From Limnochordia bacterium (GTDB taxonomy: Bacteria > Bacillota > Limnochordia > DUMW01), in contig JALNWK010000005.1 in assembly GCA_023230925.1 (NCBI GenBank), forward strand, positions 13,111 through 77,110: a stretch of DNA of 64,000 bases. The letters run 5' to 3'. This document shows, piece after piece, positions 20,819 to 40,108 of the stretch. How positions within the stretch are numbered: position 1 is the stretch's first letter; each line of letters opens with the position of its first letter. The position numbers were made by a program, and so were the translations under genes. The notes under the pieces were generated by a model. It was not told the DNA's origin. It saw nothing but the letters and a program-made list of their open reading frames with translations, and made no database searches.

Positions 20819-21608
20819 CCATCAATAAAACCATGGACACAAGAACACTTCCCATACTAGTGAGGAAGGCACCATTGAAGCCAAGAAAATAAGTTCCGAC
20901 AGGGATCCAATGCCAAATCTGAAAGCCCAGGTAGATTACCCCAATCTCGATTAGTGTACTGGCAACACTAACCCAGGAAATCATCTTCTTCAGATCCTCA
21001 TGGCGCCGCTTCTGTATCACTAGATCCACTACATAGGTACCACCTTGGTACATAACCAACGGTGCAGCGATACACAAGAGCACAATCTGAACAATGAAAA
21101 AGACCAGACCTTTTCTCTCTACCGAGTAATCAATCCCTAGGGTAGGCCAAGCCTGCGACGTTGTTCCCGTGTATTTGTAGTGATTCAGGGTACCTTTGGT
21201 TTCCACCGTATGAGAGACAGTGTCTAGGTCACCAGCCAGTTCCCACCCTATGGCGGTATCCACGGTCACCGTACACTCAGTCTCAGCAAATCTTTCAAAC
21301 ACAGACACAATCTCACCTAAAGGCAATGAATAGCTAATACGTCCATCAATACGCGGTGGTCGGCCATATAGGGCACCGCTGTTTTTCTCCGACACCGCGA
21401 TTTTAGTCATGTCCTGGCCTAGAATGCTTTCGACTTTGTCTAGATCTTTAATTACTTCCTGCTGGTCAACGTCTTGAGGATAAATCACCTCAAATACTAG
21501 GTTCGGATATGTATCAATGGTTAATTTCAGCGGCTCAACGGCAAAAGCTAGGTTGGGTAGGAGTACTATACATATTGCCACCACTTGTATCCATTTTCTA
21601 AACATCAC
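20769..21608 (-). CDS. Hypothetical membrane protein (signal peptide, extracytoplasmic domain, 3-4 C-terminal TM helices)
   Basis: N-terminal VAICIVLLPNLAFA; the C-terminal half is hydrophobic. No family recognised. Confidence 0.45.
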   Translation of the reverse strand: MMFRKWIQVVAICIVLLPNLAFAVEPLKLTIDTYPNLVFEVIYPQDVDQQEVIKDLDKVESILGQDMTKIAVSEKNSGALYGRPPRIDGRISYSLPLGEIVSVFERFAETECTVTVDTAIGWELAGDLDTVSHTVETKGTLNHYKYTGTTSQAWPTLGIDYSVERKGLVFFIVQIVLLCIAAPLVMYQGGTYVVDLVIQKRRHEDLKKMISWVSVASTLIEIGVIYLGFQIWHWIPVGTYFLGFNGAFLTSMGSVLVSMVLLMVAGYKVEKRAKKSGVL

Positions 21609-21615
21609 AATCCCC

Positions 21616-22524
21616 CTAATCCCTTGTGGAGCTTAAGACAGCAGCCAAATCTAACGCCAGCTCCTCAATCTCTCTTAATTTCGTGGTTAGCACTTGGCGT
21701 TCCTGTTCTTTAAGAACGATTCTTGGACCCTGATCCAACTGGTGGAAGTACCGCCCAGCTTCATCTAAGGCCTCATTTATCTTCGAGATAACGCTTGCCT
21801 GTTCACTGGCAAGGCGTGGGTTTTGCTCCTGAAGTCGGGGCTGTCTAAACTTTTCAACGGGTCGCACCCGACGAATCGCCTCCATGGGCGTTAGCTTTCT
21901 GTTTTCAATGAGGAGTCTGGATGCCTTTTCTAGATCGCTGCGCGCTAGTTGCTGCTCTTCGGCAAGATCAAGCAGTTGATCCTGGAGTTGATCCTTTTTT
22001 AGACGTCTGGCTGTTCTTTTTGCCACGGCTAGATGCGACAAAGTCAGTACACTAGTTCCTCCCTGGAAGTTATTCACAATTGCCCGCTGATGCCGTTCAC
22101 TCGCCTCCAAGATAAGTAGCCAGTTTAGCATAGTGGTGCGGGGAATGCCTATCTTTTCCGCCAAGGCGTTCTTGGAAAGCCCAGTCTCATTGAGATACTG
22201 CATAATACAGACAGCTCGTTCCAAGGGATCCAGCTCACTTCGCTGCTCGTTTTCAACCAGTTGAAAACGGGTCGCATCAATAGTCTGATCCGCGATAATA
22301 CATTCAATGTACTCAAATCCTAGCAATTTACAGGCTTGAAATCGTCTTTCGCCGGCGATAAGACGATACATATCCCCCTTTAATGGCCTTACTGTGATCG
22401 GATGTAACAGACCCACCTCGGCGATAGAATCAGCTAGGGTCTTGATGCCCTCCTGACTTGCCCTTCTACGTATCTGTCTTGGGGGAATTTCGATCATCTT
22501 AATGGGTACACTCATCACTTTCAT
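21616..22524 (-). CDS. ParB/Srx-fold ParB-like protein (ParB N-terminal domain with GERRxxA box, plus HTH)
   Basis: LIAGERRFQACKLLG has the arginine-rich ParB/CTPase box. An HTH is predicted at LSKNALAEKIGIPRTTMLNWL. No parA gene is adjacent. Confidence 0.7.
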   Translation of the reverse strand: MKVMSVPIKMIEIPPRQIRRRASQEGIKTLADSIAEVGLLHPITVRPLKGDMYRLIAGERRFQACKLLGFEYIECIIADQTIDATRFQLVENEQRSELDPLERAVCIMQYLNETGLSKNALAEKIGIPRTTMLNWLLILEASERHQRAIVNNFQGGTSVLTLSHLAVAKRTARRLKKDQLQDQLLDLAEEQQLARSDLEKASRLLIENRKLTPMEAIRRVRPVEKFRQPRLQEQNPRLASEQASVISKINEALDEAGRYFHQLDQGPRIVLKEQERQVLTTKLREIEELALDLAAVLSSTRD

Positions 22525-22617
22525 CTAACTCGGCTACACAACCACAGATTCTACTCCTAGATGTAGCCCGTCAACACCGCCTTTCACAGCATAGAACAGT
22601 CCGCTATGCTCGTGACT

Positions 22618-23439
22618 TCAAATCTCGTTAGAGCCTTTTAGCCTTCCTAGGATTCTTTGCCACCAAGGGGGCTTTACACCAAACCTCGGCAGGGGAAGGG
22701 GATCTTCAACCTTGACTTCTCGCCCCGCAAGCACTGCCGAGGGATTATCCTCCAAGAGTGCCTTCAAATAATGCGGTTCAATTCGCCCTTGGAGCTCCTG
22801 CTTCACTTGTCCATAACATACTCCCCGATGTCCTGACTTACGATGCATGTCCGAGGCAATAACATGAACCATTTTGGCTTCAAGTAGGGACCAGGCCACT
22901 TCCCTCACCCGTGTCCCGAATACCCCAAGCAGGCTGCCTGCATTAACTTGAAGCAATGCCCCCTGCTCCACTAGCCAATGCAAGAACTCCGGTTGATGAT
23001 ACACCACCGCGTTCCGCTCGGGATGGGCAATGATAGGTATTACTCCTTTAACTAGGACTCGGAATAGGACCTCCTCGACACAGGGCGGAATCTGATTCAA
23101 CGGCAACTCTAATAGCAAATAAACCCCGGTACCTGCAAGGGTCAACGGAGTAACGTCATTGATATTGAGCAGACCGCTATCAAACTCCACTTCAAAGCCT
23201 AAATGAAGGGATATTCCCAGACCATTACCCGCCGCTTGCTTAGTTAGTTCTGCAAAGGACAACTGCGCAGCGTGAATATAGCTTTCCCACTCATCTTTCA
23301 TCAGGAAATGGGGAGTTGCAATCGCGCTAGCAATACCCGCTTCCTCTGCTGTGCGAAGCATTGCCACGGCTTCTTCCATACTATCCGCACCATCATCAAG
23401 GCCCGGAAGAACATGCGTATGAATATCAACTACAACCAT
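22618..23439 (-). CDS. PHP-family Mn-dependent protein-tyrosine phosphatase (CpsB/YwqE type)
   Basis: MVVVDIHTHVLPGLDDGA...ATPHF are the PHP motifs. ATGA overlap with the BY-kinase gene. Confidence 0.85.
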   Translation of the reverse strand: MVVVDIHTHVLPGLDDGADSMEEAVAMLRTAEEAGIASAIATPHFLMKDEWESYIHAAQLSFAELTKQAAGNGLGISLHLGFEVEFDSGLLNINDVTPLTLAGTGVYLLLELPLNQIPPCVEEVLFRVLVKGVIPIIAHPERNAVVYHQPEFLHWLVEQGALLQVNAGSLLGVFGTRVREVAWSLLEAKMVHVIASDMHRKSGHRGVCYGQVKQELQGRIEPHYLKALLEDNPSAVLAGREVKVEDPLPLPRFGVKPPWWQRILGRLKGSNEI

Positions 23440-24143
23440 CAGGCTTGTTCCTCAGTCTGATCATAGTAGTAATAGTAGTAGTAATAATTCCCCTTACTGA
23501 CCTGAACATTGTTTAAGACCGCACCGATGACGTTGGCTTTGGCGTTGTCCAAGGCTGCCTTGGCATCCTTTGCAGCTTGATACTGGGTATGCCCTGCGTT
23601 TACCACAAGAATGACTCCATCTACCTTTGCGGCGAGTATAACTGCATCGGCCACGGCGATTACCGGAGGACTGTCAACTAAAACGATATCCGCCCTCCCC
23701 TTTAGTTCATCAAGTAGGTGTTCCATCCCCGCTGAACCAACAAGCTCCGATGGATTAGGAGGAACTGGTCCTGAATTCAGTAGCGAAAGACCCGGGACAT
23801 CGGTCTTCTGGATAGCCTCATCCACAGACATCTCACCCAAGAGAACGGTGGTTATGCCCACCCGGTTATGCCCTCCACAGATACGATGCAAGGTTGGTTT
23901 GCGCATATCACACCCGACAATAATTGTCTTCTTGCCACTTTGGGCCATTACTACCCCAAGATTGTGAAGGGTCGTCGACTTTCCTTCCTCGGGACCTGCG
24001 CTGGTAATAAGGAGCGTCTTTAACTCCCGATCGATGCCCGCAAACTGAATGTTACTTCTCAGCATACGATAGGCTTCGGCTACCGGCGATTTTGGATCTA
24101 GGTTTGTGATAGCACCACTGGCTCGCTTGTCCAAGCTTCTCAC
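23439..24143 (-). CDS. Cytoplasmic BY-kinase (CapB/YwqD/CpsD type) with C-terminal poly-tyrosine tail
   Basis: Walker A GPEEGKST, Walker A' VGCDMRKP, Walker B VLVDSPP. The C-terminus is YYYYYYYYYDQTEEQA. Confidence 0.9.
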   Translation of the reverse strand: MRSLDKRASGAITNLDPKSPVAEAYRMLRSNIQFAGIDRELKTLLITSAGPEEGKSTTLHNLGVVMAQSGKKTIIVGCDMRKPTLHRICGGHNRVGITTVLLGEMSVDEAIQKTDVPGLSLLNSGPVPPNPSELVGSAGMEHLLDELKGRADIVLVDSPPVIAVADAVILAAKVDGVILVVNAGHTQYQAAKDAKAALDNAKANVIGAVLNNVQVSKGNYYYYYYYYDQTEEQA

Positions 24144-24155
24144 TTCCCGACTCTA

Positions 24156-25613
24156 TCAGATACTACGTTTTGCAGAGCCACTTTTGGGGCTCATTCGTTT
24201 CCTTTTGCGTTTTCGTGGTCTATTGGAATCATCAAAGTTAGGAATCATCCCCAGTACAGGCAATCCCAACAGTTCCTCTACCTCTTCAGCGGTCTTGATT
24301 GTGGTATCAATATACTCTAGGAAGAAGGCTAAACCACAACCAACAAACAGACCCAGAAACCCTGATATAGCCAGGTTCAGTTTCTTTCTTGGCTTGATCG
24401 CATGCTGAGGCACCACCGCTTTATCCACGATCTGCACGTTAGCTGATTTCATGGCTTCGGTGATCCGGATCTCCTCATACTTTGTCAGAAGGAGAGTGTA
24501 CAACTCCTCGGTTACGCTAAGGTTTCGCGTTAGCCTTTGTACTTCCATTTCTGTACTGGGTAGGCCTCCCATAGCCTGCTGCTTGTCCTCCACCAGATCT
24601 TGTAGAGTACTCAACCTAGCCTCAAGAGCAATGACCTCAATTTGCCAGGCAATCAGATCCTGTAGAATACTCTGGTACACTGGGTTTGTCGCCCGGCTTT
24701 CGCTATCAACGACATCTTGAAGGGCGACAGCCATCTGCCGTTTCACCTCATCGATTTGTGCCTCAACAGCTATCACCTGCGGATGAACACCTGTATATGT
24801 TTGTTTCAACGCTGCAAGCTGCACCTCTAAGCGTCCGAGCTCGGCCCGGTGTTCCATTAGGAGCGGATTATCAGTGACCGACCGGGAGGCAATCAGGGTC
24901 TGATCTTGCTGTGTTAACTGCTCCTCTAGTTTAGACATTCGAGTTTTTGCCTCACTAATCTGCACCATCGTCTCGGCCATCATTTTGTCTAGCGCGCTCA
25001 ACTCTGAAACCAATGACGCGCTCTCCTGTAGGGGCGCAATTACCTTATGCTCAGTCCGGTACCTATTTAGCGCCTCCTCCGCGGCCAGTAGATCCTGCTG
25101 TACGATGGTCAGCTGTTCTTCAATAAAGACCCTTGCGTTTCTTGCCTCCTCTTGATTGGCCAGTTGATTCAACTCAATGAAGGCCTCAACTACAGTATTT
25201 GCCACCTCAGCGGCGAACTTAGGATCCGTGGACTGAACACTAATCCGAATCGTATCTGTCCCTTGTACAGGTAGCACACTAATACCTTGCTTAAAACCCA
25301 GAAACTCAGAGGAATGGGGGTCATCTTCTAATCCGAGCTTCGATGCCGCAAACTGAGCCAAATGACGGCTTTTTAGAATCTCGACGTAGTTTTGCACAGG
25401 GTTCTTCCCTGATAACGCCCCCGTATCGAAAAAGGGAATCTCGAGGCTGCTAGTCGGATCACGGATCATAATCGTCGTAGAAGCTTCGTAGACCGGCTCT
25501 GTAAGTTCACTGGCAACATAACTGCTGATGAGCGCGGTCAGGAGCAAAACGATGATGATCTCCTTGCGCCTGACTATGATTCGCCAGTACTCCATGATTT
25601 CCATGCTTTCCAT
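24156..25613 (-). CDS. Wzz/PCP-family polysaccharide co-polymerase with extended coiled-coil periplasmic domain (BY-kinase transmembrane modulator)
   Basis: N-terminal TM IIIVLLLTALISSYVAS is followed by a Wzz-like motif region, a long coiled coil, a C-terminal TM and a polybasic tail RPRKRKRKR. Confidence 0.8.
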   Translation of the reverse strand: MESMEIMEYWRIIVRRKEIIIVLLLTALISSYVASELTEPVYEASTTIMIRDPTSSLEIPFFDTGALSGKNPVQNYVEILKSRHLAQFAASKLGLEDDPHSSEFLGFKQGISVLPVQGTDTIRISVQSTDPKFAAEVANTVVEAFIELNQLANQEEARNARVFIEEQLTIVQQDLLAAEEALNRYRTEHKVIAPLQESASLVSELSALDKMMAETMVQISEAKTRMSKLEEQLTQQDQTLIASRSVTDNPLLMEHRAELGRLEVQLAALKQTYTGVHPQVIAVEAQIDEVKRQMAVALQDVVDSESRATNPVYQSILQDLIAWQIEVIALEARLSTLQDLVEDKQQAMGGLPSTEMEVQRLTRNLSVTEELYTLLLTKYEEIRITEAMKSANVQIVDKAVVPQHAIKPRKKLNLAISGFLGLFVGCGLAFFLEYIDTTIKTAEEVEELLGLPVLGMIPNFDDSNRPRKRKRKRMSPKSGSAKRSI

Positions 25614-25627
25614 GTTTTACTACCCCC

Positions 25628-28600
25628 CTACCACCCAGTAACCAGATCCTTAAACAACTTAACCCCTGTGAGGAACTGAAAGATGGTATTCCAATCTGGG
25701 GATGTCGTTTCGGGTACATAGATAATGTCGCCACCAACCACAATTGGATTTGCTTTCTTTACATCCCCTTCGAATAACAGCTTATCCCCCAAGGACGCCT
25801 CTCCAACCTGGGAAACATCCGCCCCCCGGTAAATCCCCACCGATTGCAGGGCTGCCCGCTCTGTTGGACCGCCAGCCATAGCAATTACATCCATAACACG
25901 GGTATCGGGGCCGATTGAGTACATTCCCGGTTGCTTAACCTGTCCCAATACAACCACTTCCAGTTTTGCTTCGGGGACAAAAATCACATCTCCCTCTTGG
26001 ATCGGATAATTCGTGTTAAGCGCCAGCTGATGGGTCAGAGCATGAAAATCTGCCTGCAAGATAACATCCTGGTCGTCTTCAGTTCTGGTAATGGTGATTT
26101 GGTCTAGACTTGCCCCGGGCAACACTCCTCCAGCCAAACTGATTGCATCCAAGAGCCGAGACCCTTGCGGAAGAAGATAGGCACCTGGACTACGTACTTG
26201 TCCAAGAACCATCACATTACGAGCCCTTGGTACATAGACAATGTCACCGGGGGATATCCGGACATCATCACCCTGCAGCTTGTATAGCGAAAACAAGTCA
26301 AAGACATGGGTTACTGCTCCATCTGCCCTGCTTAGGGTAATGCTTTGGGTATTAGCCCGATCGGTAACCCCTCCCGCTAGGGCAATAATGTCAACTAACC
26401 GATTGTTAGTTCCTAAGGGATAGGCCCCAGGATTGCGTACTTCCCCGAAGACTAAGACCTGTTGTGTTAGCATCGGCACATACACAGCACAGCCTGGACT
26501 AAGTAGGGGACTATCCATTAATCCTGAGGCGATACGGGTTAGACTGTAGATTTCCTCTCCCGATTCGTCCCCGACTATGATGCTGTCTCCGTCAGCATCA
26601 TCCCGCAATCCCCCCGCCTTTGCTACCATATCCAATAGTGAGTCCCCGGTTAAAAGCGTATACTGACCCGGGCGATTCACAGCACCCAATACCGATACCT
26701 GTCTGCGCACGAGGGGGATATAAACCAGATCGCCAGGAAAGACCTCTACGTTGTCGCTGCTATCTGGCTCGTGCAACACTGTTTGCAGATCAACCACAAT
26801 TCTACGAGGTTCCATGGCTGCTTTGCGGACTACAATTGCCTCCCCAAGCTCATCTTGGGCCAGTCCACCAGCCTTGGTAATCAGATTAAACAACCGTTCC
26901 CCTTCTTTGACAGGATACGTTCCCGGGTGACTTACCTCACCGAGAATAAGTGCATCATGTTCCCCTTCGGGCACAATAAGCACATCTCCGCCCTGCACCT
27001 CAATGTTGGAAGTCAAGTCATATTGCTGGCGTACCGCATTCAAATCCATCGTATATATGCGTATCTCGTCTTCGTCTCGGACTAAGGTGACCTTGGAAGG
27101 ATCTGCCTTGGGCGTAATGTCCTTGGCCATGGCTAACACATCTAGGACTCTGGCGCCGGCATCTACTATATAGTAGCCCGGGTTGTTCACTTGACCAAGA
27201 ACTAATACCTGACGATTAGCACGGGGAATGAATACAATATCACCACCGACCAGTAACGGATTGTCCTGATTGACATCACCCATCATCGCCTTAGCATCCA
27301 AGACTTCAGTCCGATCGTCGCGGCTTAAGGACACTCTCTCGAGATCAGCTTGAACAGTGGGCCCTTGGGCCTTTCCAATAAGGTCAAGGAGTGTATCTCC
27401 CGGCTCAGTAAGGTACGTACCTGGACGATTGACTTCACCTAAAATCAATACCCGCCTATTGGCCCTCGGTAGATATAGTACATCGCCGGCCAAAATGTGG
27501 ACAAACCCATCGACGTCTTGGCTAGTTAGCTTGCCAAGATCAGCCGGTATTCTGCAATAACTGCCATCGGCACTCTTACGCAGGATGTAGGCCCCAGAAA
27601 GATCGGCATCTTCCGTTGCCCCGCCTGCCTTACTTAAGAGTTCCAGCGGACCTAGACCCTTCTGATAGCCAAAGTGTCCCGGTCGAGTGACCTCACCTAA
27701 CACGAGGACTTCCCGTTCGTCCCGGGGTACGTAGATCATATCCTGGGGCTTAAGCCCTAGATTGAAGTCGCTATTTGTGAGGGCCTCCACAAAATCTATT
27801 TCCTCTTGCTTACCGTCCGCTCGAATGATTCGCACTGCGTCTTGACGGGCGTTAGCATTCAATCCACCCGCCAATCCAATGATATCCAACAGTCGATCAT
27901 GTCCTGCCGCAATCGTATACCGACCAGGAATTCGTACTTCCCCCAAAACAACAACTTCCCTGTTTTCCTTCGGTATAAAGAGGACATCTCCGCCATGAAT
28001 AACAAGGTTCTCCTTTGGATCACCTTGATAAACCAAGGCCGCTAAGTCAATCGGCAATGGATCTGATTCATTTCCAAACCGACTCAACCGCCCCTGCATA
28101 CTGGCGGTTTGCTCATTTAGACCACCGGCCATGGCAATCAGATCAAGAACACGACTGCCCGGCTCGGGAACGTAATATCCCGGATTTCTTACCTCCCCAA
28201 CAACCAACACACCCTGCCTAGTAGCAGGTACATACACTACCTCACCGCCCACGAGCCTGTTCTGCGGTTGATTCTCCCCGTCTAGACCCACCACTAGGCT
28301 CCGCTCATCTACGTGCACATTGATCTTTGTCGCATCAGCTTTACTGGTTAGTCCTCCCGCGAGGGCAAGAAGCTGCATGATACTCAAACCCTTTTCATCA
28401 ACCTGGAAGACACCAGGATTACGTACCTCACCAAGCACCCATATATGACGTTCCACCCTAGGCACATAAATAACATCCCCACCTCGAACTACATCGGGTG
28501 TGACAAGATCAAATTGGGTCTGAATCGGGGAATACCCTTCGTCAGTTAGCCGACTTATGGTCACCTCTTCGGTATCCGCAAAAAGCGTGAATCCCCCAGC

Positions 28601-31600
28601 CCTTGCCACCACCTCTAACGCAGAAGTAGCACCTTTGATCGCATAGGCACCGGGACTCCTCACTTCACCGAAAATCAACACTTCAGTGGCCATCTGGGGC
28701 ACAACTATGGTCTCCCCGCCACTTAGCATAATGTTCTGAGCAATATTGGGTTGCTGTTCTACTGCTTCGAGATCTATTTTCTCTAACTCAGCACCCTCAG
28801 GACGTGAGAGCATAAGACCACTGGCGTTCGCCTCTTTGGCAAGCCCACCAGCCAGACCTAACACATCAAGAATTGATGCTGATGACTCAAGAGTATAGCG
28901 TCCTGGTCTTGCTACAGCACCAAGGACTGTAACCTGGCGCACCCGCTTGGGAACAAATATGACATCCCCGCCCACTAAGGGTATATTACTACTACCGTCA
29001 TCTTGTAGTAGCGTTTGGCAATTAATCTCTTTGCTTACAAAACTCCCGTTTTCGATTCTCCGTAGGGCAACAGCTTCCACATCAGCAAAGGACGAAAATC
29101 CCTTTGCCTGACCGATAATTTCTAGCAGACCCTGACCCGGCTCTAGGTTATATACACCCGGGGCATTAACCTCGCCAAAGACTACCACCTGGCGTTCTTC
29201 TGCTTTCTCTATGTAGATTACGTCCCCACCGGAAAGAATTGGGTTTAATGGTCCCTTGGGATCTGCCTTTGCCTCAAGGAGGCTGTATCTTTGAGGCTGA
29301 TCCCTATCTTCGCTTGTTAACCAGATTAGGTCAATATCCGCCTCCGGTGTAGTCCCTTCGGCCATAGCAAGTGCGTCAAGGAGTCGAGTAGGTCCAATCA
29401 CCGTATACGTTCCCGGTCGTGTCACTTCCCCAAGCACCGTAATATCCCGTCTAGCCCGAGGAACATAGACCACACCGCCCGGCTCTATAATTGGGCTCAA
29501 CAGTCCATCTGGAGCATCGGACATGGTCTTTTGGACATTGAAGACTCTACGTGTTCCGTCCTTAAGGAGAACATGCACATTTTCCGCATCACCATGTTCA
29601 GCCACGCCGCCGGACATGGCTAGGGCATCGAGTAACCGAATGTCTTCTTGGATATCGAACACACCGGGGCTTTGAACTTCCCCTAACACGACCACTTGCT
29701 TTTGTGCCTTTGGCACATAGATGACGTCCCTAGGTTCTATCGGAAGGTTATCCTCTGGCTTAGTATTGCTCAGAATCGCTGAAACATCTATCGTACACAG
29801 CACTGGCCCTGTGGCTGTCTGCCGAGTCAGACTGACTTCCCCAAGATTTGCCCTTTCCGTAGGCCCTCCCGCTAAGGCGATCATATCCAATAATGTTGCC
29901 TCGGGTAGAATCTCGTATCCCCCTGGCACCCGTATTTCGCCTAAAATGACCACTTGTCGTTCCACCTTGGGAACAATAAGTACCTCACCGCCCTCTAACA
30001 GGCGGTTCGTCTCTGAAAATGGCCGCGCTAACACTTGCTCAAGGTCTATCTCAATCAGGCGAACATCATCGCCGACTCTTAAGCTTAGGCTTGCCGCCGA
30101 CAGGTCCGCTTGAGGAGTAGGACCGCCACCTAGAGCCAAAACGTCTAGTACCGTTAATTCCTTCGCAATCTTGAAGTACCCTGGATTACGCACTTCTCCA
30201 AGGAGCAACACACCCCGGTTGTCTTCGGGGACATACACAACATCCCCTGGCCTAACTAGTACCTCATCACTAACTACCTGACGTAGGGCGTCTCCTAGAT
30301 CCAACTCCTTAATCAGCACTGCATCACTCGTCTGCCGGGTGATGCTGATCTTCGCCTTGTCAGCAGTAACATCCAAACCACCCGCCAACGCCAGGAGTTC
30401 ATAAATGGTGACCCCTTCTTCAACTACATATGTACCAGGATTCCTTACCTCACCTAAGACGATGGCGTGACGTTTTGTCTCAGGAACATAAATGATATCC
30501 CCACCCGACAAATGTGGATTATCCGCTTTCGGCCGTGCAGATATGGCATCTTTCACGTCAACGACCACCGGCTCCGCCTGATCCTTAGAACTAATACTGA
30601 CTTTGGTGGCGTCACCCAACTCGGTAATACCACCAGCGATAGCAATTGCATCCGTAAGCCGACTTCCGGGTCTGAGATCATAGGAGCCTGGACGCTGAAC
30701 CTGACCAAAGACAATAACCTCCCGCTCAGCTTTAGGAACAAAGACAACATCGCCACCGAAAATAGGGATATCCGGCTTGTTCTGATCCTTTTGCAAAATC
30801 GCATCCAGATCGACAACAATGCGCTCTTGTTGCCCTCCTACTTTACGAGTAATACTTATCTGATCTATCAAAGCACCCTCTGTAGTATTTCCTGCCATCG
30901 CAATCAGCTCGAGCAGACTTAAATCACCCATTACCTGGAAGGCTCCGGGATTATTTACCTGACCCAAAATGACTACTTGCTCTGCCTTAGGAACATACAT
31001 AATGTCCCCTGCACATATCTCGATATTGTTGGCCCCACCACCGCTTCTGCGTATTACTTCTAGATCAACTATATGCTGGTCGTCTCCTCTTTGTAACACC
31101 ACCTGACGAAGATCAGCTTCCTTGGAATATCCGCCAGCAAGGCTGAGTAAATCAAGAATCCTGGTACCTTCTCGCACTGTGTAAGCGCCAGGTACATTAA
31201 CCTCACCAAGGACCAGGGCTTTCCTCTCCTTTGGCACAAATACAATATCGCCTGACTCCAGACTAAACTGATCCCGTCTGCCCTCACTGACGATCTGGGC
31301 AAAATCAACGATCTCCAATTGGCCGTCGCGAGTGATCTTAATTTCGCTGATCGACGCCTCCGGGGTCAGTCCTCCGGCCCGAGCAAGCAGCTCTGAGATG
31401 GTTGACTCGGGCTTCAGATCATATAGACCGGGAACCTGTACCTCACCAAATAGCCTTACCTGAATCGTTCTAAACTCCTTAACTACAACGGTTACCCGGG
31501 GACTAACAATTAACTCCTTCATTCGCTCCATCAGTTCATTGGCCAACTGAGAGCTAGACTTTCCCGATGCAACAATATCCCCGGTCAGGGGTGGTACACC

Positions 31601-31771
31601 AATCTTACCATCCGGTCTTATTTGCACAATAGTTAGTAAATCCGGATGACCCCAAACCGAAATCTGCAACACATCGCCGGGCGCTAACAAGTACTCATCG
31701 GCAGCACCATGGGCAGTTGCTGCTAACACACAAACAACGATAATAAGCAAACAATTTACCCTTTTTCTCAT
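25628..31771 (-). CDS. Giant (2047 aa) Wza/KpsD-like polysaccharide export protein with N-terminal Poly_export domain and about 22-23 tandem SLBB domains
   Basis: Signal peptide present. The Poly_export-like N-terminus reads LLAPGDVLQISVWGHPDL...IGVPPLTGDIVASGKSSSQLANEL. The unit V.VLGEV..PG.Y......LLD.IA.AGG then repeats about 23 times at roughly 80-90 aa spacing. Confidence 0.85.
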   Translation of the reverse strand: MRKRVNCLLIIVVCVLAATAHGAADEYLLAPGDVLQISVWGHPDLLTIVQIRPDGKIGVPPLTGDIVASGKSSSQLANELMERMKELIVSPRVTVVVKEFRTIQVRLFGEVQVPGLYDLKPESTISELLARAGGLTPEASISEIKITRDGQLEIVDFAQIVSEGRRDQFSLESGDIVFVPKERKALVLGEVNVPGAYTVREGTRILDLLSLAGGYSKEADLRQVVLQRGDDQHIVDLEVIRRSGGGANNIEICAGDIMYVPKAEQVVILGQVNNPGAFQVMGDLSLLELIAMAGNTTEGALIDQISITRKVGGQQERIVVDLDAILQKDQNKPDIPIFGGDVVFVPKAEREVIVFGQVQRPGSYDLRPGSRLTDAIAIAGGITELGDATKVSISSKDQAEPVVVDVKDAISARPKADNPHLSGGDIIYVPETKRHAIVLGEVRNPGTYVVEEGVTIYELLALAGGLDVTADKAKISITRQTSDAVLIKELDLGDALRQVVSDEVLVRPGDVVYVPEDNRGVLLLGEVRNPGYFKIAKELTVLDVLALGGGPTPQADLSAASLSLRVGDDVRLIEIDLEQVLARPFSETNRLLEGGEVLIVPKVERQVVILGEIRVPGGYEILPEATLLDMIALAGGPTERANLGEVSLTRQTATGPVLCTIDVSAILSNTKPEDNLPIEPRDVIYVPKAQKQVVVLGEVQSPGVFDIQEDIRLLDALAMSGGVAEHGDAENVHVLLKDGTRRVFNVQKTMSDAPDGLLSPIIEPGGVVYVPRARRDITVLGEVTRPGTYTVIGPTRLLDALAMAEGTTPEADIDLIWLTSEDRDQPQRYSLLEAKADPKGPLNPILSGGDVIYIEKAEERQVVVFGEVNAPGVYNLEPGQGLLEIIGQAKGFSSFADVEAVALRRIENGSFVSKEINCQTLLQDDGSSNIPLVGGDVIFVPKRVRQVTVLGAVARPGRYTLESSASILDVLGLAGGLAKEANASGLMLSRPEGAELEKIDLEAVEQQPNIAQNIMLSGGETIVVPQMATEVLIFGEVRSPGAYAIKGATSALEVVARAGGFTLFADTEEVTISRLTDEGYSPIQTQFDLVTPDVVRGGDVIYVPRVERHIWVLGEVRNPGVFQVDEKGLSIMQLLALAGGLTSKADATKINVHVDERSLVVGLDGENQPQNRLVGGEVVYVPATRQGVLVVGEVRNPGYYVPEPGSRVLDLIAMAGGLNEQTASMQGRLSRFGNESDPLPIDLAALVYQGDPKENLVIHGGDVLFIPKENREVVVLGEVRIPGRYTIAAGHDRLLDIIGLAGGLNANARQDAVRIIRADGKQEEIDFVEALTNSDFNLGLKPQDMIYVPRDEREVLVLGEVTRPGHFGYQKGLGPLELLSKAGGATEDADLSGAYILRKSADGSYCRIPADLGKLTSQDVDGFVHILAGDVLYLPRANRRVLILGEVNRPGTYLTEPGDTLLDLIGKAQGPTVQADLERVSLSRDDRTEVLDAKAMMGDVNQDNPLLVGGDIVFIPRANRQVLVLGQVNNPGYYIVDAGARVLDVLAMAKDITPKADPSKVTLVRDEDEIRIYTMDLNAVRQQYDLTSNIEVQGGDVLIVPEGEHDALILGEVSHPGTYPVKEGERLFNLITKAGGLAQDELGEAIVVRKAAMEPRRIVVDLQTVLHEPDSSDNVEVFPGDLVYIPLVRRQVSVLGAVNRPGQYTLLTGDSLLDMVAKAGGLRDDADGDSIIVGDESGEEIYSLTRIASGLMDSPLLSPGCAVYVPMLTQQVLVFGEVRNPGAYPLGTNNRLVDIIALAGGVTDRANTQSITLSRADGAVTHVFDLFSLYKLQGDDVRISPGDIVYVPRARNVMVLGQVRSPGAYLLPQGSRLLDAISLAGGVLPGASLDQITITRTEDDQDVILQADFHALTHQLALNTNYPIQEGDVIFVPEAKLEVVVLGQVKQPGMYSIGPDTRVMDVIAMAGGPTERAALQSVGIYRGADVSQVGEASLGDKLLFEGDVKKANPIVVGGDIIYVPETTSPDWNTIFQFLTGVKLFKDLVTGW
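25700..31500 (-). repeat. Protein-level tandem array of SLBB-like domains; the array period is about 250-270 nt, nucleotide sequences are divergent, and coordinates are approximate
   Basis: The [VI].[VIL][LF]G.V..PG.[YF] motif recurs 23 times in the translated ORF. Confidence 0.7.
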
Positions 31772-31924
31772 CTATCCACACCCCAGATGCTCAATAAAGG
31801 ATTCTTATCCAGATAAACTAGAAATCTCGAGTTAACAATAAGATACTTCTTCTCTGCCAAGAAAGTAACTGGATACAGCATACATCGTCAGGCATGTAGC
31901 AGCGTTCCCCGACAGAACCGTACA

Positions 31925-31966
31925 ACCAGACCAAAAGCTGGGAGCCGCTAGGAAACACGGCTCCCC
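31925..31966 (-). terminator. Intrinsic terminator after the 31993..32919 gene
   Basis: GGGAGCCG-CTAGGAAACA-CGGCTCCC, followed on the minus strand by AGCTTTTGG. Confidence 0.5.
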
Positions 31967-31992
31967 TTAAGAACATCTAAACCTGCATCCAA

Positions 31993-32919
31993 TTAATGGA
32001 ACACAATGCCATTGATATGTAGTTCCGCTACGGTTTCTCCGAGAATAACCGTCCCTACAGGCATGACCACCTCTGCACCCTTGACCACAAACGCCAGACC
32101 AGCGCCTATGGGGGAACCAAGTACAACTAATCCTGCTGTACCTAGTAGCGCAGCCAAACCCACAGCATCCTGACCCTTTTCCACCTTCGCCGATGGGATA
32201 AGATCTACTAGACTACGGTCGATGGCCTTAACGCTTCCTAGTTCCAAGACAACCTGGGCATCCCTTCCTAGCTGCTTGGCCTGGGTCACTTGCTTAACGA
32301 CTCCTGTTCCTAGCAGTCCCTTAGGTATTACTAGGACATCATCGACAAAAACGTTTTCGTTGATCCGGAACTTAATTTCATCGCCGTCTCGATTCTTGGT
32401 AGAATCTATCCCGTCCATCAATTCTAGTTGCACCACCGTTCCAGCGGGGACAACAACGGACTGCATCTGTATATCCGGGAACAGGGCCAACATGCCTTTG
32501 ATGCGGCCATCAAAGGGCCCGGTGAGTACCTTCCCGTAATAGGCGTTTTCCATAAACTCTAGCTGTGTTACCAAGGAACTATGCTCCCGGACCTCGTTGA
32601 AGGTTAACCATTCCACAGCATTCAATGTCATGCTCAAATTACCAGCGACTTCGTCACTAGGCGCAAGCATGTTCCAGATCTTGTCAACTCTTGGTACTAG
32701 ACTTGCTGTTGAACCACCACTTACACCAAAAAGATCACTTTCTAGCTTACTTACCCTCTGAAACGGTGTAAGATCCTTGGCACTGTAATCCTTCCCATAC
32801 ACCATAGTCTCAATCAATGCAATCCTGTCCAACACCCCTTGGCCATAGACGGGAACGCTGGCACATACTAGAACAATACAGAGAACAGAAATAGCGAACC
32901 CTCTCAATTTAACGGTCAT
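31993..32919 (-). CDS. Secreted hypothetical protein
   Basis: Start MTVKLRGFAISVLCIVLVCASVPVYG with RBS GGGGGG. The mature region is a mixed beta-rich sequence. No family recognised. Confidence 0.45.
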   Translation of the reverse strand: MTVKLRGFAISVLCIVLVCASVPVYGQGVLDRIALIETMVYGKDYSAKDLTPFQRVSKLESDLFGVSGGSTASLVPRVDKIWNMLAPSDEVAGNLSMTLNAVEWLTFNEVREHSSLVTQLEFMENAYYGKVLTGPFDGRIKGMLALFPDIQMQSVVVPAGTVVQLELMDGIDSTKNRDGDEIKFRINENVFVDDVLVIPKGLLGTGVVKQVTQAKQLGRDAQVVLELGSVKAIDRSLVDLIPSAKVEKGQDAVGLAALLGTAGLVVLGSPIGAGLAFVVKGAEVVMPVGTVILGETVAELHINGIVFH

Positions 32920-32955
32920 GCTTGTCCCCCCCACAGGAAATATTAAAACATTTAC

Positions 32956-34515
32956 TTAAAACCTAATAGTAAACTCCGCACTCGCCCGATTGGACTTCGA
33001 GGCCACATCCCCAGAAAAGTCAACCATCTCATATCCTAGGTGGAGCAAAGCATTGCCTCCCACCTCGAACCCAAGGCCGAATGACGTTGTCAAAGTGTTT
33101 ACATTTCCCGACTGCAGACTAATATCTGCTAGCAACTTACGGTCGTTACCCAGCAAATACTCTAGGCCGGCCGTTGTTGTCTGCATGGTACTTAGGACCT
33201 CCAGATCATTATCGCGTTCCCCTTCAAACAACAGACCCGCTTTTACCTTGCCTTGAGGAATCAGAACGTCAAGACCCACTGAGGTTTTCGAACGAGAAGG
33301 TCCCAGTTTCTTATTAAGAAGACTATCAAGATCAACGTACTCATAACCGGCATGTAAAACGCCTACATTATCCACCGTGTAGTTTACGCCTACCGATGTG
33401 GTCTTACTAATTGCCGTTTCTCCATCATAGGCGTTTTCGTTATGCCCAAGCTCAGTTATGAAACGTAGATCACCCATTTTCAACTCCATCTGGTACAAGG
33501 CCAAGTCACCTTCCTGGGTAATCTCACTACTCAAATGACTGTATCCATCGAGAACTCGATTGTACCAGCCAGCAAGCTCCATTATCTCATTGGTGAAAAG
33601 TGCGCCAATGCGAAATGAGCTTCCGCTATCATCGGATGCCGCCGATTGAGAAAACTCTCCAATCAACTCAAGGCCACCGCCTAGTACCCAGCTACCCCCA
33701 AGACTAGTTAGAAACTTCGCTTTTTCCTGATCCCAGACTCCTGAAGGTGCTTTCAAGGCGTAACTGGCGTCAAGCATAATCTGATCAGTCAATCGAAAGG
33801 AGCCATCTAACGCGGCCATATAGTCGTTTTGATCTCTTTGTTTTGACTGGGCAACTAACAACTGCGAATTCCAGAAATTCGTCTGCACACTACCGGGCAA
33901 CCACTTATTGACTTCTGACCAAGGACCGTCCCCTAAGGGAATCATACTCAATACGAGGGGACTGGCTGGACCATTCAGGACATCATTCAGAGGAAACACC
34001 ACTCCTTTGTGCCCTTCTTCCCCAGCCAATAGCTGCGAAATCCTATACAAAACACGACCGTCTTGCCCATTACCTCCGAAAACGTAAAACGTATTCGCGG
34101 TTTCGCCTATGTCAACGGCGCGCCAGTTCTGCAACGAATAGACTGCCAACTCCGTATCCAGACCAAGCAACTTTAGTTCAGGCCGAAACTCCTTCTCTAA
34201 CCGTAGCAATAAACCAGCACTAGCCCGATTCAGCGCCTGGATCTGAAATCCTTGCTCCTCCCAGGAATCAATGTTTAGACTACTGAAAATCCTAGAAACA
34301 AGCAACGCCATCTCGTATCGGCTTACGGTCTGACCATCTTGAAACCCGCTGGAATAGACCTCATCGATTAGGCCATAGCCGGCCAGTTCTCTAAACGCGG
34401 TATATGACCAATGCTCCTTCGGCACATCGCTCAAGGAATCTAGGGCGGACACGGGCCCGGCAATTAATAGGATACAAATGAGAATAACCAATGGATACAC
34501 ATTACGTCCTCGCAT
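32956..34515 (-). CDS. OmpM-like outer-membrane protein: N-terminal SLH domain plus C-terminal beta-barrel
   Basis: Signal peptide, then SLH motif DVPKEHWSYTAFRELAGYGLIDE...GFQDGQTVSRYEMALLVSRI. The C-terminus ends ...AEFTIRF, a terminal aromatic typical of OMP barrels. RBS AAGGAGGG. Confidence 0.75.
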   Translation of the reverse strand: MRGRNVYPLVILICILLIAGPVSALDSLSDVPKEHWSYTAFRELAGYGLIDEVYSSGFQDGQTVSRYEMALLVSRIFSSLNIDSWEEQGFQIQALNRASAGLLLRLEKEFRPELKLLGLDTELAVYSLQNWRAVDIGETANTFYVFGGNGQDGRVLYRISQLLAGEEGHKGVVFPLNDVLNGPASPLVLSMIPLGDGPWSEVNKWLPGSVQTNFWNSQLLVAQSKQRDQNDYMAALDGSFRLTDQIMLDASYALKAPSGVWDQEKAKFLTSLGGSWVLGGGLELIGEFSQSAASDDSGSSFRIGALFTNEIMELAGWYNRVLDGYSHLSSEITQEGDLALYQMELKMGDLRFITELGHNENAYDGETAISKTTSVGVNYTVDNVGVLHAGYEYVDLDSLLNKKLGPSRSKTSVGLDVLIPQGKVKAGLLFEGERDNDLEVLSTMQTTTAGLEYLLGNDRKLLADISLQSGNVNTLTTSFGLGFEVGGNALLHLGYEMVDFSGDVASKSNRASAEFTIRF

Positions 34516-34607: not shown

Positions 34608-34997
34608 TTAAAACTTGCAGTGAAGAAAAAAACGTTCGGCTAAAATTTCGGCCACTATATCGTCATAGGGCTCTGGCGGGACCTGCAGGGAGGTTGGTAA
34701 TAACCGACGCCATCCAGTGGGTTTGTTGTACCTCCAATACCGTCTTCGCGCTTCCTCGCTGGAACGATGCTCATCCACAAACTCAATAGGCAAACCATTA
34801 CCAACCAACTGGGCTATTTCTCTAGCACCAGTGCGATTTCCGATAACAATCACCTCTGGACCATATCTCGCCATCAATCCTCTAGCAAACTCGCCAATCG
34901 CATCGACACCTACAACCCCTCGCAAGATTGTACCATGTTGGTCGGCTACGGCAATGCCGCATTTAGACGTACCTGGGTCTATTGCCAAAATCCGCAA
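34608..34997 (-). CDS. RuvX/YqgF-like RNase H-fold putative Holliday-junction resolvase / pre-16S rRNA nuclease
   Basis: MRILAIDPGTSKCGIAVAD N-terminus, 129 aa. Confidence 0.6.
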   Translation of the reverse strand: MRILAIDPGTSKCGIAVADQHGTILRGVVGVDAIGEFARGLMARYGPEVIVIGNRTGAREIAQLVGNGLPIEFVDEHRSSEEARRRYWRYNKPTGWRRLLPTSLQVPPEPYDDIVAEILAERFFLHCKF

Positions 34998-35170: not shown

Positions 35171-35204
35171 CCAAAAAAAGCCCCCGGATAAATCACCCGG
35201 GGGC
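35171..35204 (-). terminator. Strong intrinsic terminator after the giant SLH protein gene
   Basis: GCCCCCGG-ATAAATCA-CCGGGGGC, followed on the minus strand by TTTTTTT. Confidence 0.8.
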
Positions 35205-35222
35205 CTACGTTCTCGATTACCT

Positions 35223-38200
35223 TTAGAAGCTGAACCCAACTGTCGCAAGGGCTTCCCATACCTGATAATCTTCATCAACGTTGGTATCCCAGCACAGCTC
35301 AGCATAGTTACTGCTCAGCGAAATGTTAAAACCGTTACCGATTGGGTAAACATACTTCATGTCAGCAGTTCGAGCGCTAAAGCGATCTGATTTCTTGGTA
35401 TCAAGCCCAGCACTCTGCTTTGCAGCTAGACTTAAGCTACCACCGTAAAGCTGACGATCAGCCGTAAGTGAAAGCTTACTCTCTGGAGCAAGACTAGCAT
35501 TGGTAAGCAAATCAGTACTCTGACCGTACTCAACACCAACACCCACCTTGGCATTGAGCAATTCTCCAGTATAATCAAGTCCGATACTGGCAGTCCCTAC
35601 CTTATCCGTTACAGTAGAGCTAAGCAAGTCCTCCGTTGTGGTAACACGATACCCAGCAGCAAACATCAAGCCATCACCGGCATCAATGACCGACCTCAAT
35701 CCACCTACGGTCTTGCGGTTCTCCTGCCACTTATCCAGTTCGGTCCACTTGTTATCTACGATTTCCCTCGTAGTCCACTGATACGTTGCATCAAGACTGA
35801 CTCCGGGACCTACTGGCATCTTATCGATATTCAGTGCCACTTGATAGTGCTGCCTATCATCGACACCAAGCTCCTTCAAATTAGCCACATCTAAATCAAG
35901 TACTACAGGCAAATCGAAGGGCGCTATCTTTCTGGAAACAGATAGTTTGCCGATAGAGTGATCCAGCTCGTCAGTGGTGGAGAAATCTCTGGTGAAGTAT
36001 GCACCATACAGGTCAAAGTCGAGTATATTCCGCTTAGCATCCAAAAGATTCTCTATCTTGGAGCTTTCACCACCGTCATCCTTGGTCGTGATATCCCTGC
36101 GCTCATAGCCAAGCTCGGCTCCAAAAACGTCGACGTTCTTCAAAGTGGTAATATTAGATAGTTCGTAATGGCCTTTCGTCACACTAGTATCTAGTCTACC
36201 AACTTGTTGAGTAAGCTTTGCACCAAACACAGGAGCCGAGGCCGTTAAGACATACTTCCTTTGATCCGGTAAAAGATCCCCGTCTTTGCTCTTGAAGTCC
36301 TTCGCATATTTCGGAGCAAATCCCTCAGCAACGTTTCCATAGTCGAAACCAATATCTATAATCCCAACGTTGGTCCCAAGTTTGACGTCGGTTGCGGTAA
36401 CGCTATCTGCCTTGTACGAATCTACCGTATACTTTAGGTCATAGTCAATATTACCAATCGAGCCTACAGTACCAATCTGGCCCACCCGGTCACGAGCATA
36501 TGCTGGTGCCCCGGCGCCAACATGGGGGTCTGTGAACCAACTTACCAGTCGAGTATACAGTTTCCCAGTTGCAACATCAAATTCACCGTAAACAGCAGCT
36601 AGATACTCACCCACATTAAGCCGTGAGAAGTACACATCAGCCCTTACAGTATCGCTAAAGGCGAGTTTGGAACTAACACCAAACATCTTCAGTGGCTCGA
36701 TCTTCTTCTTGTTAATGGTGTATTTGTCAAAGGAACCAGCGATCTCGTCATGGCTCAGTGAGCCAAAGTAAGCTAGTCTAAGCACATCGGGAGTTTCCAC
36801 CCTGACACTCATATCCGACAGACGCACGTTAAAGTCCGGATCGCTGCCGAAGAAGTTGGTCACCGTTGCCAAGCTTCCCTTAACCAGTACGTTATCACTA
36901 GGATAAGCCTCAAAACCAAAGGTTAACTTGTGTGCGAATCTGCTCACAGCAGGATCGTACAGCTTCGGATTGGAGGTCTTTGTATCCCTTACATGAGGAT
37001 CTTTGTATAGCTTTGCAGCATCCCCTGCCACGACAGCCCTGTTAACTAACTCTAGGCTAGTATCACCAAAGAACCTGACCTTCCCAAACTTAGCCGCGAA
37101 CTCCTCAAAGGAACCAGATAGAGCATCGTGGTCCTTGCGCAGATCTTGCTGCTGTGCTGCCAACTTTCCGGTGGCATCCTCAAGATCTCCCACGGCCACT
37201 CGCAGTTCCTGTTGTCCTTGCTCGACCTTTGCCAACCGGCTACTCAGGAGTTCCTGGGTGCTCTCAATGTTCTTAACCTCAGTATCCAGCGCCACCACGA
37301 AGGAGCGTAGATCATCTAATCCTGTAGCACCGGTCTGCAACTCGGCCTTGAGTTCACTGATCGTGGCCTCGATTCGATCGGCACGTTTGTTGGTGCGTTC
37401 TATCCTAAATAGGAGATCACCCATCTTTGAGTCTAGCACTGCATTACGAGACTCAAATAACGAAAGCATACCCTTTATGCCATCAAATTCTTCCTGCAAT
37501 TCTGCCTCAGTCAGATCCAGTTTCGCTTCGATTCGCTCAACCTGTTTGTTTGCTCGTCCAATTCTAAACAAAAGATCGCTTAACTTCGAATCGATCACGG
37601 CATTCTTCGAGTCCAAAACAGAAATTGCACTCTTTACAGCAACGATCTCGTCTTCTAGTTCCGCATTGGTGGCATCAAGCTGCTTCATGATGGAAGCTGT
37701 TTTCAGATCGATTAGTGCCTTTAGACCGTCCACATCCTTAGACATGGCCGCCAGTTGCACGTCAAAAAGACCCATTTGGTCATTGAGTAGGTCTGTGACC
37801 TGCTGTAGCTTGGTGGCTACTTCGGATGCTTCAAGTGCGGTCTGCTCGGCGGTCTTACTGATCTCCAGTCCTTCCTTTGCCACAGTTAGTGCTTCAGCGG
37901 CGGAAACCTGTGCCTCTTGCCCCAACTTGACTGCCTTCTCGCCAAGGGCCTTGGCCTCCTCGGAATATGCAACAGCCTCAGCAGATCTGGTTAGGGCCGC
38001 ATCACTATTCTTAACAGCGGTCTGCGCCATTTCTGCAACTTCAGGGCCGGTAGTATCGGTGCTTTGTTGAACCTTCAATGCGATTGCTTCGGCCCGACTA
38101 GCGGTTTCTGCTGTTGCATCGCTTAGTGCCTTAAGTTCCTCCAGCACTTTGGCAATTTCAGCACTCTGGTCCTTAGCCTCAGCAGCTGTGGAGTAGGCCC

Positions 38201-40092: not shown

Positions 40093-40108
40093 ATACCCCC
40101 ATCCAAAA

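Follow-up and report, generated by a model that had tools for sequence, protein, structure and literature searches.

A probable Wza/Wzc-type exporter cassette with a giant SLBB-repeat protein, encoded apart from glycan-building genes, in the outer-membrane gene cluster of a Limnochordia bacterium

How can a bacterium keep a complete set of genes for exporting a surface polysaccharide and none beside them for building one? This question is raised by a stretch of 64 kb (64,000 nucleotides; contig JALNWK010000005.1 of assembly GCA_023230925.1, positions 13,111 to 77,110; hereafter, the window) from a Limnochordia bacterium, which encodes a giant Wza-like outer-membrane polysaccharide export (OPX) protein, a polysaccharide co-polymerase (PCP), a tyrosine kinase of the bacterial kind (BY-kinase), and a PHP-type phosphatase. 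An initial annotation of the sequence described these genes, together with their neighbors, as a single “hybrid” export and regulation locus of eight minus-strand genes, devoid of any glycosyltransferase, Wzx, or Wzy. Reading of the open reading frames (ORFs) across the window confirmed that all eight genes are present, intact, and on the minus strand. The locus nevertheless consists of two separable units, and we propose, with a probability of roughly 0.65, that one of them is a Wza/Wzc-type exporter cassette residing in a supercluster of outer-membrane (OM) and lipopolysaccharide (LPS) genes and fed by genes encoded elsewhere.

Unit B is the OPX-PCP-BY-kinase-phosphatase cassette, whereas unit A, which comprises a RuvX-like gene, a paralogue of the OM protein OmpM, a gene for a 313-aa secreted protein, and a ParB-like gene, is part of a conserved OM/LPS cluster backbone (Table 1). 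We divide the locus in this way because unit A occurs without the cassette, the ParB-like gene changes its position, and a hairpin lies between the units. The hairpin is located 28 nt past the stop codon of the 313-aa gene and ~170 nt ahead of the OPX start. As a terminator it matches the consensus only, and the total of terminator-like sites in the region is no higher than in shuffled sequences. The gene for a 279-aa membrane protein lies just outside the start coordinate (21616) of the initial annotation. Base composition gave no sign that the locus is a foreign island, and an Rfam scan of the window returned no match. Upstream lie the lipid-A genes LpxC, A, I, and B with two LpxB relatives, as well as MsbA, LptB, and LptF/G, and this lpx/lpt/OmpM context fits a Limnochordia-like diderm Firmicute.

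Table 1. Features of the locus and its surroundings. Positions refer to the window unless preceded by the handle of a related locus; HMM, hidden Markov model; AF2, AlphaFold2; TM, transmembrane.
Feature	Coordinates	Strand	Basis
Group next to the ATP synthase operon	5233-8176	-	
279-aa membrane protein, signal peptide and 3 TM segments	20769-21608	-	no family match
ParB/Noc-family DNA-binding protein, ParB_N and HTH	21616-22524	-	TIGR00180
Unit B cassette	22618-31771	-	
PHP-type (CpsB/CapC) phosphotyrosine phosphatase	22618-23439	-	PF19567
Cytoplasmic BY-kinase, CapB/EpsG-like	23439-24143	-	TIGR01007
PCP, PCP-2 periplasmic/TM half of split Wzc	24156-25613	-	Pfam Wzz and GNVR
Giant OPX: signal peptide, Poly_export, 23 contiguous SLBB repeats, 23-aa conserved C-terminal helix	25628-31771	-	Pfam, own HMM, AF2
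Probable terminator or attenuator between units, GC-rich hairpin then T-run	31940-31965	-	consensus match only
313-aa secreted protein, N-terminal helical repeats and VirB10/TrbI-C-terminal-like beta domain	31993-32934	-	AF2, Foldseek
OmpM paralogue: signal peptide, SLH domain, stalk, putative beta-barrel ending in F	32956-34515 (or 34542)	-	profile match
RuvX/YqgF-like small protein	34608-34997	-	Pfam RuvX, E 4e-8
Hairpin after the 1315-aa SLH gene	35178-35206		
1315-aa protein with SLH domain	35223-39170	-	
TrkA/TrkH potassium-uptake genes	39433-41467	-	
1934-aa protein	44741-50545	-	TPR/MIT-type matches
393-aa ORF	50612-51793	-	no Pfam/NCBIfam family
“Lipid-A-disaccharide synthase-related” protein, LpxB family	51891-53129	-	TIGR03492
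LpxB-like protein, weak	54852-56099	-	LpxB family
Canonical LpxB	56099-57250	-	LpxB family
724-aa ORF	61149-63323	-	no Pfam/NCBIfam family
507-565-aa secreted protein of Limnochordales-type loci	L003:18013-19605, L005:17815-19338, L006:18023-19720, L008:5033-6580		

Annotation with Pfam and NCBIfam upheld the assignment of unit B to export of the Wza/Wzc type with tyrosine phosphoregulation: the kinase is split from the PCP, the PCP has a long periplasmic part, and there is an OM component. The OPX is 2047 aa long as called, with the gene probably starting at position 31750 instead, which gives 2040 aa. Its Poly_export domain (PF02563) occupies residues 23-97 (E 6.6e-19, 68 bits vs cut-off 28) and is followed by 23 SLBB stretches recognized by Pfam (PF10531/PF22461); our own HMM likewise delineated 23 contiguous units of ~85 aa between residues 98 and 2017. 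The best-conserved part of the protein is the last SLBB unit with the 22-23-aa tail (PDWNTIFQFLTGVKLFKDLVTGW), which reaches 65% column identity across 15 relatives, and the OPX proteins of related loci are only ~35% identical to that of the window overall. In an AF2 model of the last 276 aa (predicted local distance difference test score, pLDDT, of 84), three SLBB domains precede a terminal helix at 256-274, and Foldseek searches with this model retrieved full-length E. coli Wza chains as best matches (E 4e-13), aligned across nearly the whole Wza chain.

The remaining three genes of the cassette are also recognizable. The PCP has TM segments at residues 12-30 and 414-432, enclosing a periplasmic domain of ~380 aa and leaving a basic cytoplasmic tail; it matches Pfam Wzz (E 1e-9) and GNVR (E 1e-20), and TIGR03007, the chain-length determinant of XrtA/PEP-CTERM systems, covers residues 5-474 of its 485 aa with 212 bits, with EpsF matching as well. 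The kinase, assigned by Pfam to the P-loop proteins of the ParA/MinD superfamily, scores 203 bits with TIGR01007 (cut-off 108) and carries Walker A (GPEEGKST), Walker A' (CDMRKP), and Walker B (VLVDSPP) motifs and a C-terminal run of 8 tyrosines. The tyrosine cluster and the DxR element are kept in 6 orthologues, the first Asp of the A' motif varying between G, N, and D. With intact motifs and conserved orthologues, the kinase gene is no pseudogene, in keeping with the initial annotation. The start of the phosphatase gene overlaps the kinase stop by 1 nt, and its product matches PF19567 over its full length (residues 3-237, E 3.2e-48), with the metal-binding HxH motif, read as DIHTH, at the N-terminus (DIHTHVLPGLDDG).

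The absence of sugar-building genes, also pointed out in the initial annotation, held up across a wider region. The ~13 kb downstream and the ~29 kb upstream are free of genes for cps-type glycosyltransferases, Wzx, and Wzy, and the Pfam/NCBIfam annotation of the whole window places neither a flippase nor a polymerase nor a cps-type glycosyltransferase near the locus. The nearest downstream glycosyltransferase is a small GT2 enzyme (7430-8176) located behind pantothenate/CoA genes and a two-component system, and the only sugar-related genes upstream are those of the lipid-A LpxB family (51891-57250). The absence is real here and is not a peculiarity of this genome. In 15 Limnochordia-like genomes, 89 ORFs downstream of the cassette encode VanZ, DUF4438, ThiI, an IscS-like class-V aminotransferase, and other housekeeping proteins, and none of the 25 families listed for them is a glycosyltransferase, Wzx, or Wzy family. 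Because all 15 genomes are alike in this respect, we regard the missing biosynthetic neighbors as a conserved state of the lineage, for which the group 4 capsule of E. coli offers a precedent (PMC8592465).

Two candidates for a hidden polymerase or flippase were rejected. The 279-aa membrane protein, which has an orthologue only in the closest relative, possesses only 3 TM segments after the signal peptide, and the conserved, aromatic-rich protein of 507-565 aa that follows the phosphatase in Limnochordales-type loci is secreted rather than polytopic. The latter has no family match and may be a sublineage-specific protein of the OM or of capsule assembly. The group of genes next to the ATP synthase operon, to which the small GT2 enzyme belongs (a weak match to PpgS-like polyprenyl-phosphate glycosyltransferases), further encodes an oxidoreductase of the GFO/IDH/MocA type and a membrane protein of 289 aa that gives a faint VTT/DedA-like match; it looks like a lipid-linked sugar modification set, not a cps locus.

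To place the cassette in its genomic setting, we compared 6 related metagenomic loci and the loci of ~27 Limnochordia-like species-representative genomes, retrieved with an alignment of the OPX C-terminal region; the cassette occupies the same place throughout this set of species genomes. Relatives carrying the cassette include members of Limnochordales and Limnochordaceae, Limnochordia metagenome-assembled genomes, and Ca. Darwinibacter. The order DUF3084, large SLH protein, RuvX-like protein, OmpM paralogue, 313-aa protein, OPX, PCP, BY-kinase, PHP phosphatase is conserved in the 6 metagenomic loci and in ~20 of 27 species genomes with enough flanking sequence, an arrangement far beyond chance. 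Unit A is also found on its own, which contradicts the initial view of the listed genes as one locus. One Limnochordia-like contig (L090) encodes the RuvX-like protein, the OmpM paralogue, the 313-aa protein (287 bits), and the ParB-like protein (304 bits) in a row, with no OPX, PCP, kinase, or phosphatase. In Fuchsiella, the genes LptC-LptA-LptB-LptFG-DUF3084-RuvX and those for SLH proteins are followed by a 313-aa family member and then by KdtA, GT9, WaaP, and Wzy_C genes, and in Cloacibacillus a 313-aa family member precedes an LptC-like gene; no OPX gene occurs within 10 kb of the family member in either genome.

A close counterpart of the cassette occurs among glycan genes in a second lineage. 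In the Halanaerobiales genera Halothermothrix (L035) and Halonatronum (L049), an OPX-PCP-BY-kinase-PHP cassette, with an OPX of 2 SLBB domains, is surrounded by genes for heptosyltransferases (GT9), GT2 and GT4 enzymes, WaaP-like kinases, Wzy_C, Wzz, WecB, and CapD-like proteins, and in Halothermothrix it lies downstream of DUF3084, RuvX, and an SLH protein. The PCPs of these two loci are the closest to that of the window outside the Limnochordia-like set (261-283 bits vs ≤172 for other phyla, in a sample biased by the search pattern). Judged from gene order and sequence similarity, this distribution suggests that the cassette is an old resident of the OM/LPS supercluster of diderm Firmicutes and that, in Limnochordia, neighboring glycan genes were either lost or absent from the start, while its OPX grew.

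The reading we favor, at the probability given above, treats the OPX, PCP, kinase, and phosphatase as a self-contained cassette for terminal export and for chain-length control and phosphoregulation of a Wzx/Wzy-type pathway. By homology with E. coli Wza-Wzc-Wzb, the PCP would oligomerize in the inner membrane, and its cytoplasmic tail would activate the separately encoded kinase. Autophosphorylation of the tyrosine run and its reversal by the PHP phosphatase would then cycle the PCP-kinase assembly, coupling polymerization of repeat units linked to undecaprenyl pyrophosphate to their hand-over into the OPX, the C-terminal helix of which may anchor in, or open, the OM. Since the Limnochordia cassette carries no sugar-building genes, the enzymes that synthesize, flip, and polymerize the repeat units would be encoded elsewhere. 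The substrate is most plausibly an LPS- or O-antigen-related glycan, a best guess by analogy, based on the location in an LPS cluster and on the glycan genes flanking the Halanaerobiales cassettes.

Several results weigh against this interpretation. No priming transferase, Wzx, or Wzy was located in the 64 kb examined. Pfam Wza_C (PF18412) does not match the OPX tail even at E≤10, and the tail's hydrophobic moment does not exceed that of shuffled sequences, for which reason we dropped the label “amphipathic” and, given both negatives, only infer that the OPX is class-1-like. The complete Wza-Wzc channel of E. coli is 360 Å long and spans ~250 Å of periplasm with two SLBB rings (PMC12881504), so that a stack of 23 rings would be several times that span and, because it would exceed a comparable periplasm, the Wza geometry is not simply transferable. 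Furthermore, the OmpM paralogue and the 313-aa protein very consistently adjoin the cassette in Limnochordia, which leaves room for a functional link.

The size of the OPX merits separate consideration. A published survey counted 1-14 SLBB domains in class 1 and 1-7 in class 3 OPX proteins (PMC9603273), and the 23 of the window exceed the maximum of 14, a point that the initial annotation did not raise. Among relatives, the count is 7-16 for species genomes and reaches 24, 27, and 28 in metagenomic sequences, with repeat number tracking neither PCP nor OmpM-paralogue length across the loci compared. The units of the window's OPX share 23-51% identity with no effect of proximity, which rules out a recent amplification and marks the repeats as ancient. 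In another lineage, a locus of classical cps-like context (L002:8057-19466) encodes a 24-SLBB OPX 31% identical to that of the window; there, a divergently transcribed CpsB gene is followed by the BY-kinase, OPX, PCP, and a CapD-like Polysacc_synt_2 gene, and the OmpM and 313-aa genes are absent.

A Wza ring is ~3 nm high. If the 23 SLBB domains stacked like the D2/D3 rings of Wza, the OPX would form a tube of ~60-70 nm, or two to three times what the E. coli Wza-Wzc channel spans in the periplasm. Such a conduit would have to run along or coil in the periplasm, cross an unusually thick envelope, or assemble with a geometry other than that of Wza, and it might work jointly with the adjacent VirB10-like (313-aa) and OmpM-like proteins. 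We consider it unlikely that the 7-28-fold SLBB expansion creates a new structural class of OPX assembly; were it to do so, diderm Firmicutes would possess a trans-envelope apparatus not described before. The giant-OPX geometry, together with a possible link to the VirB10-like and OmpM-like neighbors, is where the main remaining chance of something more unusual lies.

The OmpM paralogue is 519-528 aa long, depending on the start, and as a single sequence has no Pfam match, SLH included. A profile of six orthologues, however, matches Veillonella OmpM1 over its SLH domain and stalk (8bz2/8bym/8bys; E 3e-14 to 1e-12, with 2.8e-14 for V. parvula 8bz2), and a possible C-terminal beta-barrel is hinted at by a weak Porin_4 match (E 0.011) and the terminal ...IRF signal of its C-terminus (...AEFTIRF). 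The RuvX-like gene, with orthologues in all loci, keeps its position in both Limnochordia and Halanaerobiales.

The 313-aa protein carries a signal peptide and belongs to no Pfam family, the match to Pfam TrbI reaching only E 0.11. Its AF2 model (22 homologues; pLDDT 78.5, predicted TM-score, pTM, of 0.70) contains a beta domain broken by a glycine-rich, glycine-zipper-like hydrophobic hairpin of low pLDDT. The top 16 Foldseek matches in the PDB are all C-terminal domains of the VirB10 family, among them CagY, TraF, TrwE, and ComB10 (E 2e-5 to 8e-3); the best has E 1.7e-5 and probability 1.0, but TM-scores are only ~0.4 on the target and root-mean-square deviations are 13-17 Å. The model thus points to a VirB10-like fold rather than to membership of the VirB10 family. 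We do not assign the protein to a type IV secretion system: where VirB10 would have its N-terminal inner-membrane anchor and proline-rich linker, there are a signal peptide and helical repeats, and no type IV secretion genes, such as those for VirB7, VirB9, or the ATPase, occur in the window. An exhaustive profile search recovered 222 representatives of the family with a threshold of E≤1e-30 and about 10,400 with E≤1e-10, including members in Fuchsiella (Halanaerobiales), Cloacibacillus (Synergistota), and Thermodesulfobium (see the loci L091:10001-10975 and L092:10001-11155). In Fuchsiella the family accompanies OmpM and Lpt genes, in Cloacibacillus it adjoins LptC, and it may represent an unrecognized OM biogenesis or tethering factor of OmpM-type diderms.

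The ParB-like protein scores 103 bits with TIGR00180 (cut-off 58) and 111 bits with the Noc equivalog, far under the cut-off of 315. It has the motifs GERR (GERRFQA) and ENxQR (ENEQR) and belongs to a subfamily without the C-terminal domain PF23552 that is present in the canonical ParBs of the same list. No ParA is encoded beside it, the neighboring P-loop protein being the BY-kinase. The subfamily is common to Limnochordia and Halanaerobium (L088:7733-8683; L090:10001-10918), and its genes lie near OmpM/313-aa or MurB/ThiI genes. Among the loci compared, some lineages have the gene after the phosphatase and others ahead of the OPX, and it was not found next to the cassette in roughly half of them. 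These changes of side and absences, its occurrence beside the 313-aa gene without the cassette, and its location in Halanaerobium by MurB and ThiI with no kinase led us to reject the protein as a dedicated partner of the ParA-related BY-kinase.

The strongest competitor of the export-cassette reading would unite these proteins with the cassette in one machine, in which the OmpM paralogue and the VirB10-like 313-aa protein form an OM portal or collar for the giant OPX and the ParB-like protein regulates the operon, comparable to GfcD with GfcE or to the Wzp beta-barrels with class-3 OPX proteins. The adjacency is invariant in ~20 Limnochordia-like genomes, OM proteins are encoded beside the OPX in the gfc operon and in Myxococcus (PMC8592465, PMC9603273), OPX and VirB10 are both known as alpha-helical OM-spanning families (PMC11845990), and the hydrophobic hairpin of the 313-aa protein sits at the position of the VirB10 antenna. 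Still, L090, Fuchsiella, and Cloacibacillus have unit A but no cassette, L002, L016, and L025 have multi-SLBB OPX genes but no unit A, and the OPX has a modelled Wza_C-like helix of its own. The terminator-like hairpin separating the units and the erratic presence and side of the ParB-like gene speak against a single machine as well, leaving it a low probability. We therefore regard the OmpM paralogue and the 313-aa, RuvX-like, and ParB-like proteins as products of OM backbone genes and not as obligate parts of the exporter.

Alternatively, the cassette could be a tyrosine-phosphorylation signaling module without a dedicated polymer, in the manner of TkmA-PtkA-PtpZ of B. subtilis, with the multi-SLBB protein serving as a periplasmic or envelope scaffold and not as a channel. 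The lack of biosynthetic genes near any Limnochordia locus examined would be expected in that case, and a range of 7-28 repeats unaccompanied by changes in PCP or OmpM length is hard to fit to a conduit of fixed length. A pure scaffold would, however, hardly account for the best conservation of precisely the N-terminal Poly_export domain and the Wza-like C-terminal end, for the full Wzc-like periplasmic domain retained by the PCP, or for the position of the Halanaerobiales cassettes among glycan genes, and we judge this alternative to be improbable. Finally, the notion of a decaying, non-functional remnant of a former cps/LPS locus stripped of its biosynthetic genes, which the glycan genes flanking the cassette in Halanaerobiales and missing in Limnochordia might evoke, can practically be discounted, given that every ORF is intact, including the 6.1-kb gene, that catalytic motifs and the tyrosine cluster are kept in proteins of 45-80% identity where OPX identity is only ~35%, and that all 23 repeats are recognizable and contiguous.

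Other genes of the window deserve brief mention. The 1315-aa protein has a single N-terminal SLH domain, is longer than its relatives at the same position (650-890 aa), and may be an S-layer or OM-tether protein; the hairpin after its gene, with a 13-bp stem, is the strongest terminator-like site of the region. Between it and DUF3084 lie the TrkA/TrkH genes, which the other Limnochordia loci examined (L003, L005-L007) lack there and which look like a lineage-specific insertion in the OM cluster. The 1934-aa protein, encoded within the lpx/lpt cluster between two ORFs without assignment and LptB, has only TPR/MIT-type matches, confined to its C-terminal third. The 724-aa and 393-aa ORFs also lie inside this cluster; the former directly follows an LptA/LptD_N-like gene and could encode a very divergent LptD-like component. 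The three LpxB-family genes on the minus strand are close together, with MsbA in their midst.

Under the export-cassette reading, a Wza/Wzc-type cassette is placed in the OM/LPS supercluster of two deep lineages of diderm Firmicutes, Limnochordia and Halanaerobiales, which suggests that surface-glycan export belonged to the ancestral Firmicute OM toolkit. The series of OPX proteins with 2, 7-16, and 23-28 SLBB domains on an otherwise constant set of PCP, kinase, and phosphatase provides a means to test OPX length against envelope architecture. The VirB10-like family, in turn, is set apart as a widespread and uncharacterized companion of OmpM and Lpt genes.

Among known systems, the closest functional parallel is the gfcABCDE-etp-etk operon of the E. 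coli group 4 capsule, which encodes export functions only, the polymer being the O-antigen of the strain (PMC8592465). Like the window cassette, it combines an OPX (GfcE), a BY-kinase, and a phosphatase with no glycosyltransferase, Wzx, or Wzy; OM and periplasmic proteins of unclear role precede the export genes, the polymer is made by O-antigen genes elsewhere, and there is a tie to LPS, in our case to an LPS gene neighborhood. The two differ in that Etk is a fused PCP-kinase and Etp a low-molecular-weight protein tyrosine phosphatase, as opposed to a split kinase and a PHP-type phosphatase, and in that GfcE has 2 SLBB domains against 23. No match to GfcA-D homologues (GfcC/Caps_synth_GfcC or related) was found among the upstream genes of the window, and its upstream OmpM paralogue and VirB10-like protein also exist without the cassette. 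The likeness to gfc is thus one of export-only function and not of membership.

E. coli Wza-Wzc-Wzb, of the group 1 capsule and colanic acid, shares with the cassette the Poly_export-SLBB-terminal helix architecture of the OPX (the helix being modelled in the window's protein), a PCP-2 whose periplasmic domain is long, a kinase that carries Walker A/A'/B motifs and a tyrosine cluster, and a cognate phosphatase. Wza, however, is a lipoprotein, has 2 SLBB domains, and matches Wza_C, whereas in the window's OPX sequence reading found no lipobox. The long periplasmic PCP and separate kinase recall the EpsF/EpsG pair of Methylobacillus and the XrtA/PEP-CTERM pairs, and the kinase also matches TIGR03018 and EpsG, but the scores fall under the equivalog cut-offs of the XrtA/EpsF/EpsG families, and no exosortase or PEP-CTERM context was seen in the window. 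With the Firmicute CapA/CapB/CpsB (CpsC/CpsD/CpsB) systems the cassette has in common the separate modulator and kinase and the PHP-type CpsB phosphatase, whereas the extracellular loop of those modulators is short, an OPX partner is lacking, and biosynthetic genes and an LCP protein normally form part of their loci. The epithet “hybrid” claims too much: it describes a set in which the phosphatase is of the Firmicute type but does not mark a new kind of system, since the best full-length matches of the PCP, TIGR03007 and EpsF, represent ordinary split pairs of Gram-negative bacteria.

In domain order, the giant protein resembles the multi-SLBB class-1 OPX proteins, which share the Poly_export-SLBB(n)-C-terminal helix plan with n = 1-14 (PMC9603273), compared with 23 here and 24, 27, and 28 in relatives. 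None of the papers listed by a literature search paired Wza with Limnochordia or Halanaerobiales, and the eLife 2016 paper on the OM cluster mentions neither Wza nor polysaccharide export nor a tyrosine kinase. Gram-negative bacteria are known to separate kinase and PCP in this way, the PCP keeping a long periplasmic domain, and export-only loci are also known; what is new is the fixed place of the cassette in the OM supercluster of diderm Firmicutes and the extreme SLBB expansion of its OPX.

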